Sequence record: ON528738
Length of the DNA: 64,000 nucleotides
Source: Shigella phage ESh28
Reading direction: 5' to 3' (one strand)
The translations under genes and the position numbers were made by a program. The notes under the pieces were generated by a model. The model had not been told where the DNA came from, ran no database searches, and was given only the letters and a program-made list of their open reading frames with translations. The stretch's first letter is position 1. Each line of letters opens with the position of its first letter. Below, one piece after another: positions 51,713 through 58,314 of the stretch.

Positions 51713-53224
51713 TTATAAATTAACTGTTTTCATTACGTAATTAAATTTTTCATCTGCGTAGCGCTGAATACGATCAATGCCGTGTTTTAAAAGATAGTTC
51801 AAATGAACGTATTTCTTTTTCGTATTAGCAGATTTTGGCTTGACGCCTGCGTCATCTATAAGATCCCAGACTGTTGCGATTGTTTTAGAACCATGTTTAC
51901 GTAATACGCGACCTATTGTTTGCAATACAATAATTTTAGATTTAACACCGTGTGCTAAAACAACGTGATGCAGATTTTTAACTGAAATACCAGTAGAAAA
52001 TACACCATAACTAGCTACTATAATTATTCCTTTACCGTTTTCAGCTAAGGTTTTCATTATATTGCGGGTTTCGGTATCAACTTCCCCTGATACGTAATAA
52101 ACTTTATCGTATTCATTTTTAATTAAATCGAAAATAGCTTTACCGTGCGATACGTGTTTAAACATGACAAAAGCGTTTTCATCTTTTTGCGCAAGCTTAA
52201 TAGCTAATTTAGCGATCCATTTATTTCTTTTACTAAGCCCAGTAATAATTTTTATTTCTTCTTGATAAGTTTTTCCCTTTAATTTGGTAGTGAACTCATC
52301 AGGATAACGAAGAAAAATACTATTAATTTTTAGCTCAGTTACTTGTCCATCTTCCATTAACTTAGAAGTCGTTACTGGCTTAAATATTTCACCAAACATT
52401 CCAACATACTGCATGATATTGGCTTTGCCATCACGTAATGAACCAGACAAACCGAATTTGAACATGCAGTTATTTAAACCTGATATGATAGATGAAATAC
52501 TTTTTCCTGTAGCAAGATGGCATTCATCATTCATCATCATTCCAAACTGTGAGAACCATTCTTTTGGTTGTTTTACTACAGTTTGCCATGTACCAACAAC
52601 AACTGGTGCATCATTTTTATATTTATCATCTTTTGATGCTCCGCCACCAATTTTCTTTATCATTGCATGACTGAATAAACGATAGTCAACGAAGTCATCA
52701 GCCATCTGAGTTGTCAGAGCAGTTGTTGGAACAATGATAAGAATTTTACCTTCATAATTTTCCAAATAATATCGCGCAAGCAAAGCTTGAATTAACGATT
52801 TACCAGCGGATGTTGGAAGATTAAGAATTCTACGACGATTAACTAATCCTTCGAACACTGCATCTTTTTGATACCAGTGTGGTTCAATTCTTTTATTTCC
52901 TGAATAGATTTCTAATTTAGAAAGCCATTCATCAAAATCTTTTCTTGATAATTCTTCTTTTTCGTTAATTTGTGGGTCAATCCAGGCTTTATAGCCAAAG
53001 TTATCACAGAACTTTTTAATTTGCCCGACTAAGCCGAATGGAAGAAGACGATTATAATCTAACAGACGGATTCGTCCATCCCAGTGGCCATATCTGTACT
53101 TCGGATTAAAACGATACCCATCAGCTTCAAAGCTAAAGAAATCACGGAGTTCATGAAATGTACTTTCTTCACAATCAATTCTCACGTGACTAAAATCATA
53201 AAAATGTACTTTAATGTCAGTCAT
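51713..53224 (-). CDS. uvsW: UvsW RNA-DNA / DNA-DNA helicase
   Basis: 503 aa; helicase motifs (PTSAGKS Walker A; DECH box); recalled T4 UvsW. Confidence 0.85.
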   Translation of the reverse strand: MTDIKVHFYDFSHVRIDCEESTFHELRDFFSFEADGYRFNPKYRYGHWDGRIRLLDYNRLLPFGLVGQIKKFCDNFGYKAWIDPQINEKEELSRKDFDEWLSKLEIYSGNKRIEPHWYQKDAVFEGLVNRRRILNLPTSAGKSLIQALLARYYLENYEGKILIIVPTTALTTQMADDFVDYRLFSHAMIKKIGGGASKDDKYKNDAPVVVGTWQTVVKQPKEWFSQFGMMMNDECHLATGKSISSIISGLNNCMFKFGLSGSLRDGKANIMQYVGMFGEIFKPVTTSKLMEDGQVTELKINSIFLRYPDEFTTKLKGKTYQEEIKIITGLSKRNKWIAKLAIKLAQKDENAFVMFKHVSHGKAIFDLIKNEYDKVYYVSGEVDTETRNIMKTLAENGKGIIIVASYGVFSTGISVKNLHHVVLAHGVKSKIIVLQTIGRVLRKHGSKTIATVWDLIDDAGVKPKSANTKKKYVHLNYLLKHGIDRIQRYADEKFNYVMKTVNL

Positions 53225-53253
53225 GTCTAAATACCATGTAATAAATATATCTA

Positions 53254-53261
53254 TATTTATA
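53254..53261 (-). promoter_or_regulatory. late promoter (TATAAATA) for uvsW
   Basis: Minus-strand TATAAATA ~30 nt upstream of uvsW ATG. Confidence 0.6.
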
Positions 53262-53274
53262 CTGAGGAAATATT

Positions 53275-53964: not shown

Positions 53965-55383
53965 ATGACTTTTACAGTTGATATAACTCCTAAAACACCA
54001 ACGGGGGTTATTGATGAAACCAAGCAGTTTACTGCTGCACCCAGTGGTCAAACTGAAGGTGGAACTATTACCTATGCTTGGAGTGTAGATAATGTTCCAC
54101 AGGATGGAGCTGAAGCAACCTTTAATTATGTATTAAAAGGACCTGCTGGTCAAAAGACTATTAAAGTGGTTGCAACAAATACAGTTCCAGAAGCTGAAGC
54201 TGAAACAGCTGAAATTAGTACAACTATCACAGTTCAAAATAAGACACAGACAACTACCTTAGCTGTAACTCCTAATAGTCCTCCAGAAGGAGTAATCGGA
54301 ACAGCTGTTGAATTTACTGCTGCTTTAGCTTCGCAGCCATCGGGCGCAACTGCTACGTATCAATGGTACGTTGACGATTCTCCTGTGGGCGAAGCAACTT
54401 CTGCTACATTCAATTATACTCCTACTACAAGCGGAGTTAAAAAAATTAAGTGTGTAGCTCAAGTAACTGCTGATGATTATAATGCACTGAGCGTTACTTC
54501 TAATGAAGTATCATTGACGGTTAATAAAAAGACGCAGACAACTACATTGGCAGTAACTCCTGCTAGTCCTTCAGCTGGAGTAATTGGAACCCCAGTTCAA
54601 TTTACTGCTGCCTTAGCTTCTCAACCGTCTGGAGCGTCTGCTACGTATCAATGGTATGTAGATGACTCTCAAGTTAGTGGAGAAACTAACTCTACATTTA
54701 ACTATACTCCAACTACAAATGGAGTCAAAAGAATTAAATGCGTAGCCCAAGTAACTGCTGATGATTATAATGCAAAAGAAGTTACTTCCAATGAAGTATC
54801 ATTGACAGTTAATAAGAAGACAATGAATCCACAGGTTACATTGACTCCTCCTTCTATTAATGTTCAGCAAGATGCTTCGGCTACATTTACGGCTAATGTT
54901 ACGGATGCTCCAGAAGAAGCACAAATTACTTACTCGTGGAAGAAAGATTCTTCTCCTGTAGAAGGGTCAACTAACGTATATACTGTCGATACCTCATCTG
55001 TTGGAAGTCAAACTATTGAAGTTACTGCTGTCGTTGCAGCAACTGATTATGATAGCAAAACAGTTAAAACAACAGGTCAAGTTCAAGTGACTGATAAAGT
55101 TGCTCCTGAACCAGAAGGTGAATTACCTTATGTTCATCCTCTTCCACATCGTACTTCAGCTTACATCTGGTGCGGTTGGTGGGTTATGGATGAAATCCAA
55201 AAAATGACTGAAGAAGGTAAAGATTGGAAAACTGAAGATCCAGATAGTAAGTACTACTTGCATCGTTACACTCTTCAGAAGATGATGAAAGATTATCCAG
55301 AAGTTGATGTCCAAGAATCGCGTAATGGATACATCATTCACAAAACTGCTTTAGAAACTGGTATCATCTATACCTATCCATAA
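53965..55383 (+). CDS. hoc: Hoc highly immunogenic outer capsid protein with an extra Ig-like domain
   Basis: 472 aa vs 376 in T4 as recalled; MTFTVDITPKTPTGVIDETKQFTAAP; tandem near-duplicate ~96-aa Ig-like modules; conserved capsid-binding C-terminus. Confidence 0.85.
   Translation: MTFTVDITPKTPTGVIDETKQFTAAPSGQTEGGTITYAWSVDNVPQDGAEATFNYVLKGPAGQKTIKVVATNTVPEAEAETAEISTTITVQNKTQTTTLAVTPNSPPEGVIGTAVEFTAALASQPSGATATYQWYVDDSPVGEATSATFNYTPTTSGVKKIKCVAQVTADDYNALSVTSNEVSLTVNKKTQTTTLAVTPASPSAGVIGTPVQFTAALASQPSGASATYQWYVDDSQVSGETNSTFNYTPTTNGVKRIKCVAQVTADDYNAKEVTSNEVSLTVNKKTMNPQVTLTPPSINVQQDASATFTANVTDAPEEAQITYSWKKDSSPVEGSTNVYTVDTSSVGSQTIEVTAVVAATDYDSKTVKTTGQVQVTDKVAPEPEGELPYVHPLPHRTSAYIWCGWWVMDEIQKMTEEGKDWKTEDPDSKYYLHRYTLQKMMKDYPEVDVQESRNGYIIHKTALETGIIYTYP
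54238..54522 (+). repeat. hoc: hoc internal tandem repeat, copy 1 (one Ig-like domain)
   Basis: Encodes NKTQTTTLAVTPNSPPEGVIGTAVEFTAALASQPSGATATYQWYVDDSPVGEATSATFNYTPTTSGVKKIKCVAQVTADDYNALSVTSNEVSLTV. Confidence 0.8.
54523..54810 (+). repeat. hoc: hoc internal tandem repeat, copy 2
   Basis: Encodes NKKTQTTTLAVTPASPSAGVIGTPVQFTAALASQPSGASATYQWYVDDSQVSGETNSTFNYTPTTNGVKRIKCVAQVTADDYNAKEVTSNEVSLTV; high nucleotide similarity to copy 1 by eye. Confidence 0.8.
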
Positions 55384-55387
55384 TCGT

Positions 55388-55414
55388 AGGGGCTTCGGCC
55401 CCTTTCTTCATTTT
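55388..55414 (+). terminator. intrinsic terminator after hoc (UUCG tetraloop)
   Basis: AGGGGC-TTCG-GCCCCT followed by TTCTTCATTTT. Confidence 0.65.
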
Positions 55415-58306: not shown

Positions 58307-58314
58307 TATTTATA
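58307..58314 (-). promoter_or_regulatory. late promoter (TATAAATA) for gene 24
   Basis: Minus-strand TATAAATA ~30 nt upstream of gene 24 ATG. Confidence 0.65.

Follow-up and report, generated by a model that had tools for sequence, protein, structure and literature searches.

The hoc gene of Shigella phage ESh28 is longer than that of T4, which raises the question of whether the extra length is a structural novelty of this phage or a form that it inherited. We examined the gene in a window of 64,000 nt from sequence record ON528738. The hoc ORF is intact and its product has 472 aa, against 376 aa for T4 Hoc, encoded by a CDS of 1131 nt; the ORF map and the T4 Hoc sequence (PDB 5vf3_Z) thereby confirm the two lengths given in a preliminary description of this DNA. 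The ESh28 product matches T4 Hoc at E 7.7e-219 and the PHROG 1149 family, "Hoc-like head decoration", at E 6e-139, and none of our results speaks against this identification. Our reading, to which we assign a probability of roughly 0.92, is that this ORF is Tequatrovirus hoc in a common long allelic form that was inherited and has spread by recombination among Tequatroviruses.

The neighborhood of the gene is the expected one. According to the ORF map and PHROG matches, the gene order in the window is uvsW (minus strand), inh, hoc, the equivalents of 24.3 and 24.2, rnlB and gene 24 (minus strand), and the position of hoc between inh and 24.3/24.2/rnlB is that of the T4 and EP01 records. Over the 24 kb surrounding hoc, identity with many Tequatrovirus genomes is about 97%. 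The terminator-like element listed in Table 1 has a counterpart in phage NBG2, whose record carries an annotated terminator under its match to the ESh28 hoc region.

Table 1. Features of the ESh28 hoc locus, by position in the window; residue numbers are those of ESh28 Hoc unless T4 is named.
Feature	Positions	Strand	Support or remark
inh, prohead protease inhibitor, 226 aa	53275..53955	+	PHROG 1051 at E 4.5e-102; same place in T4 and EP01
hoc CDS, long allele with two D2 modules	53965..55383	+	T4 Hoc match; PHROG 1149; colinear 1419-nt hoc genes
Ig-like domain 1, D1 (residues 1-91)	53965..54237	+	AlphaFold2 β-sandwich, pLDDT ~87-94; T4 Hoc 1-91
288-nt tandem repeat, full DNA-level extent, 2.1 copies	54229..54822	+	TRF period 288, score 785, 80% matches
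D2-type module copy 1 (residues 92-187), divergent "type A"	54238..54525	+	Repeat finders; AlphaFold2 pLDDT ~90-94
D2-type module copy 2 (residues 188-283), "type B", mostly the counterpart of T4 domain 2	54526..54813	+	
Domain 3 of T4 numbering, D3, fourth Ig-like domain here (residues 284-376)	54814..55092	+	Pfam; AlphaFold2
C-terminal capsid-binding domain (residues 377-472)	55093..55380	+	T4 281-376; PHROG 21694, 14282, 11091
Terminator-like GC-rich hairpin AGGGGCTTCGGCCCCT with T-run TTCTTCATTT	55388..55413	+	5 nt past the hoc stop

Several smaller observations concern the same neighborhood. The gap between uvsW (51713-53224) and inh is 50 nt in ESh28 (53225-53274), and the 618-nt homing-endonuclease gene that T4 and EP01 have at this spot is missing; this mobile endonuclease beside hoc is polymorphic, present in some phages and absent from others. 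Minus-strand ORFs within hoc (55156-55341, 61 aa, for example) were rejected as chance; the conserved hoc CDS covers the entire stretch. A scan for sigma-70 promoters gave no enrichment, with 9 found and 8.5 expected. The T4 late-promoter core TATAAATA occurs at 16 sites in the window, against 8.6 expected, and one of 100 shuffles reaches 16; the sites include 53254-53261 and 58307-58314, both on the minus strand. No exact TATAAATA core was found on the plus strand immediately 5′ of hoc or inh, and the nearest similar sequence on that strand, AATAAATA, lies at about 53241, upstream of inh.

The extra length lies in a direct, head-to-tail repeat of 288 nt. Two independent tools detect it: besides the TRF result in Table 1, a second repeat finder places its two copies at 54229-54516 and 54517-54804, with 80% identity, and the protein modules that correspond to them fall within 3 nt of where the preliminary description had put them. 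That description called the modules near-identical, which overstates the case: 79 of 96 residues (82%) and 232 of 288 nt (80.6%) are the same, so they are clear paralogues. Neither D2 module contains a frameshift or stop in the window sequence. In the alignment to T4 Hoc, T4 residues 1-106 correspond to ESh28 1-106 and T4 93-376 to ESh28 189-472, and hence the ESh28 protein has exactly one extra 96-aa module. T4 Hoc (PDB 5VF3, 8T1X) is the product of the same gene at the same locus, colinear with ESh28 Hoc through D1, D3 and the capsid-binding domain; it has a single D2 module, to which ESh28 adds residues 92-187 (96 aa, ~10.4 kDa). The domain counts of the two proteins are therefore not equal, T4 having one D2 module fewer, as had been supposed.

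Tandem repeats are prone to mis-assembly, and the UFV09-11 records have hoc divided into several CDS, so an artefact of assembly or sequencing, in which a single repeat unit was rendered as two, deserves consideration. It is hardly credible here. With 56 of 288 nt different between them, the copies cannot stem from reads of a single copy that were collapsed or expanded; moreover the reading frame is intact, and colinear 1419-nt genes are present in many independent genomes.

We compared the copies with one another and with T4 to gauge their age. Copy 1 and copy 2 are separated by a dS of 0.71 and a dN of 0.115 (dN/dS 0.16). Against T4 D2, copy 2 gives dS 0.32 (0.319), dN 0.075 and dN/dS 0.23, and copy 1 gives dS 0.745. 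The corresponding values against T4 are dS 0.30, dN 0.068 and dN/dS 0.22 for D1, and dS 0.23, dN 0.045 and dN/dS 0.20 for D3 together with the C-terminal domain, so that the dS of copy 2 is similar to that of the flanking domains. The D2 paralogues are older than the divergence of ESh28 hoc from T4 hoc (dS 0.71 versus 0.23-0.32). Purifying selection acts on each of the two (dN/dS 0.16), and we thus expect either copy to yield a folded, functional domain.

The same conclusion was reached from other two-copy proteins. We compared 31 of these, namely that of the ESh28 window and 30 public cluster representatives. In all 31 the two copies within a protein differ, at 14-42 of 95 sites, and across the set the nearest neighbors of copy 1s are copy 1s and those of copy 2s are copy 2s. 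Copy 1 is of type A in 29 of the 31 and copy 2 of type B in 21; ESh28 has A followed by B. Since the copy-1/copy-2 order is common to all 31 proteins, the arrangement is old and shared, and does not stem from a recent event in ESh28.

The gene has wide distribution. ESh28 hoc matches 656 of 50,697 phage records. The shares of long and short forms were estimated from 60 evenly spread rows of the 656, 51 of them with full coverage; among these 51, 21 show the form of 1419 nt (or 1425 nt) that is colinear with ESh28, and the other 30 show that of T4, with 1131 nt. The long form with two D2 modules thus makes up roughly 40% of the sampled Tequatrovirus hoc records, and the related phages that have it number in the hundreds; carriers include PP01, RB27, RB30, Sf23, NBG2, ECO4, G28, IME340, teqskov, KRT47 and many more. 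The two-module form is real, as the preliminary description had it, and is one that ESh28 shares with about 40% of the sample.

Protein lengths fall into discrete classes. The top 120 clusters from a collection of 5.8 billion proteins comprise 81 of 376-378 aa, 30 of 468-472 aa and 9 of 567-570 aa, and an HMM of the module finds one, two and three D2 copies in the ~376-, ~472- and ~568-aa classes, respectively. The three-copy class includes the Hoc proteins of UGKSEcP1 and UGKSEcP2 (568-570 aa), which belong to the same family and locus and have three D2-type modules where ESh28 has two. A 283-aa class at the same locus (EP01, and ΦPNJ-9, PQ100635) has lost D3, whereas ESh28 keeps it; the D3-less Hoc of ΦPNJ-9 has been published (PMC11853027). 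Among the best protein matches none has four or more D2-type modules. Tequatrovirus hoc is accordingly polymorphic in domain number, with products of 283, 376, 472 and 568-570 aa that carry one to three D2-type modules, with or without D3.

Public records name the gene variously, and in some cases wrongly. It appears as "capsid vertex protein" (SP1), "baseplate wedge subunit" (FP43), "PKD domain protein", "capsid whiskers protein" (BASEL phages) and "endonuclease" (a Shigella sonnei assembly), and several copies lie in assemblies labelled Escherichia coli.

The extra domain has been annotated before. The GenBank entry for the hoc gene of RB30 (AY101183) includes a repeat_region that attributes an additional immunoglobulin-like domain to an intragenic repeat, along with five domain features. 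RB30 Hoc (AAM52483.1) agrees with that of ESh28 in its 1419-nt CDS, its tandem 288-nt modules, its position and its five annotated domains; the two genes align in one piece over 1-1419 at 92.3% nt identity, and the proteins align without a gap. The hoc genes of RB30, PP01, RB27, Sf23, NBG2, ECO4, G28 and IME340 are colinear with that of ESh28 at 92-95% nt identity and show allelic differences only. The closest public hoc genes (215Ecol030PP, SP1) have 95.4% DNA identity, and identity to the nearest protein cluster is 94%. Among the papers covered by our literature search none describes RB30 hoc, and within that scope its documentation is the GenBank annotation. Among 650 Hoc homologues, the domain that binds the capsid, at the C-terminus, is kept and the number of Ig-like domains ranges from 1 to 10 (Fokine et al. 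2023, PMC10385173). An extra Ig-like domain is already known both as an allele class and as a property of the family, because of the RB30 annotation and the published range of 1-10 domains. The upper end of that range is represented by a distant homologue, the Hoc of Serratia phage Muldoon (1174 aa, 10 Ig-like domains), with a variable Ig string (PMC10385173); the ESh28 case differs from homologues of this kind in that the variation lies inside one genus and concerns one identifiable module.

These data bear directly on the idea that a recent tandem duplication, private to ESh28, created a fresh structural novelty. The exact 288-nt period, the preserved frame and the adjacency of the copies are what such an event would leave. 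The idea is refuted, however, by the divergence of the copies (80.6% DNA identity, dS 0.71) and by a copy-1/copy-2 order that dozens of cluster representatives share and that hundreds of phage genomes also have, and RB30 had already been annotated with the extra domain; we give it next to no credence. What stands of the earlier claim of a tandem duplication is an in-frame extra module that is a paralogue of T4 domain 2; what falls is its implied standing as a noteworthy departure, the arrangement being old, widespread and annotated.

The long hoc gene would have originated when one 288-nt module was duplicated in tandem and in frame, probably by unequal recombination at similar linker or boundary sequences of adjacent Ig modules. 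The D1/D2, D2/D2 and D2/D3 junctions have in common the sequence …ACAGTT-A-AA-AAGACA…. The two-module arrangement is inherited and swapped among Tequatroviruses by recombination, and it was not born in the ESh28 genome. Type A/B patterns at the discriminating sites of 169 modules show that single-copy alleles are extensively mosaic for the two module types. The sharpest difference between the copies of ESh28 is a loop patch, SPVGEATSA at residues 139-147 (54379-54405) in copy 1 and SQVSGETNS at 235-243 (54667-54693) in copy 2, which in copy 1 lies between modelled strands 129-136 and 148-151. Overall the patch types are SPVxEATSA (copy 1) and SQVxGETNS (copy 2), and both segregate among single-copy alleles: of 81 such alleles, 43 have the type A patch and 24, T4 included, type B, and there are many mosaics besides. 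The mosaic alleles fit frequent recombination or gene conversion.

Two further accounts differ from ours on how the module number came about. One makes the two-copy form ancestral in Tequatrovirus and the T4-type protein of 376 aa a product of collapse, in which case T4 would have one domain fewer rather than ESh28 one more. Frequent collapse or gene conversion predicts just what is seen among single D2 alleles, some of them copy-1-like, some copy-2-like and many mosaic; the divergence of types A and B (dS 0.71) exceeds that of the rest of hoc, and domain loss is known in this gene from the D3-less EP01 and PNJ-9. Yet the same mosaics can come from two old alleles with one copy each, through ordinary homologous recombination, and collapse by a single crossover predicts chimeras with a copy-1 5′ part and a copy-2 3′ part, whereas in T4 D2 the nine discriminating sites are copy-2-like up to the eighth, and the 3′ end resembles copy 1. 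We regard this account as possible, if on balance doubtful.

The other account has the long form arise in a mixed infection, by unequal recombination that joined two already diverged hoc alleles, one of type A and one of type B. That both types exist singly (the 43 and 24 of 81 at the loop patch), that A precedes B in nearly every case, and that the junctions share the short similar sequence given above, which could mediate unequal exchange, all agree with such a birth, which would mean that most of the divergence between the copies predates the duplication. The same data would be expected, however, had the copies diverged and collapsed after an old duplication, and we consider a birth of this kind rather unlikely. 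Both accounts are tentative, and neither alters the verdict that ESh28 carries the common long allele.

We next consider the architecture of the product. For ESh28 Hoc we predict four Ig-like domains and a capsid-binding one, five in all, and the preliminary description was right in proposing this number, which Pfam, the T4 alignment, AlphaFold2 and PHROG all support. The AlphaFold2 model was built from an alignment of 22 long-form sequences and has a mean pLDDT of 82.7 and a pTM of 0.54; because of the latter value its inter-domain geometry is unreliable. It contains four β-sandwich domains (1-91, 92-187, 188-283 and 284-376) with pLDDT about 88-96; its C-terminal domain is partly helical and of low confidence. 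This last domain, residues 377-472, differs from T4 Hoc 281-376 by just 2-3 substitutions. The fourth Ig-like domain is aligned to T4 188-280 and has a Pfam Ig_3/I-set stretch at 289-356 and pLDDT ~88-94. The PKD family (PF00801) scores 41.4 bits against a cut-off of 23.5, its best stretch being 197-253 in module copy 2; the other Pfam matches are Ig_3, Ig_2 and I-set.

Foldseek against the PDB gave as best matches strings of four Ig domains (Sidekick, ICAM-5 and Dscam, E ~1e-12), and neither RB49 nor T4 Hoc is listed among the top 50. This search confirms the fold type, and membership in the Hoc family rests on sequence. The predicted mass and pI are 50.8 kDa and 4.6 for ESh28 Hoc, versus 40.4 kDa and 4.7 for T4 Hoc; copy 1 has a computed pI of 4.3 and a charge of about -4. 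Compared with one another, D1, the D2 modules and D3 share 24-37 identical residues over ~94-100 alignment columns, and the whole Ig string therefore looks like the outcome of older serial duplications, the two D2 copies being the youngest pair.

Hoc, the highly immunogenic outer capsid protein of T4, sits as one copy at the center of each gp23 hexamer on the mature capsid and is dispensable for growth. The C-terminal domain of ESh28 Hoc would bind gp23 hexamer centers like that of T4 Hoc. From the usual size of Ig domains, one Ig-like domain adds ~4-5 nm. The T4 Hoc fibre measures ~18 nm (PMC10385173). The ESh28 fibre would project one Ig domain further, ~4-5 nm beyond that of T4, and the extra acidic domain (copy 1) would add negative surface.

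Hoc mediates adherence to mucus and glycans (PMC9271167, PMC11150434). Fucosylated mucin glycans are ligands of its Ig domains, and binding is changed by D246N in T4 D3 (PMC9271167) and by E29/G33 substitutions in D1 of φPNJ-6 Hoc (PMC11150434). Because single substitutions in these domains change glycan binding, altered surface binding by the long Hoc is plausible. A longer fibre is likewise a reasonable expectation from the architecture. We think it improbable that the two D2 types, which differ most at the surface loop patch, correspond to two glycan specificities held as an old balanced polymorphism, which the two- and three-copy alleles would combine on one fibre; were this so, copy number and type would tune mucus or cell-surface adherence beyond the effect of fibre length.

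Hoc is in use for phage display and vaccine scaffolds. In practical terms, a five-domain fibre protein of ~51 kDa is to be expected from ESh28 instead of the four-domain, 40-kDa protein of T4. The discovery value of the extra domain is slight, as it is a known and widespread Hoc allele and an ordinary feature of ESh28. For the family, the series of 283, 376, 472 and 568 aa within one genus offers a natural set in which fibre length or domain content can be tested against adherence.
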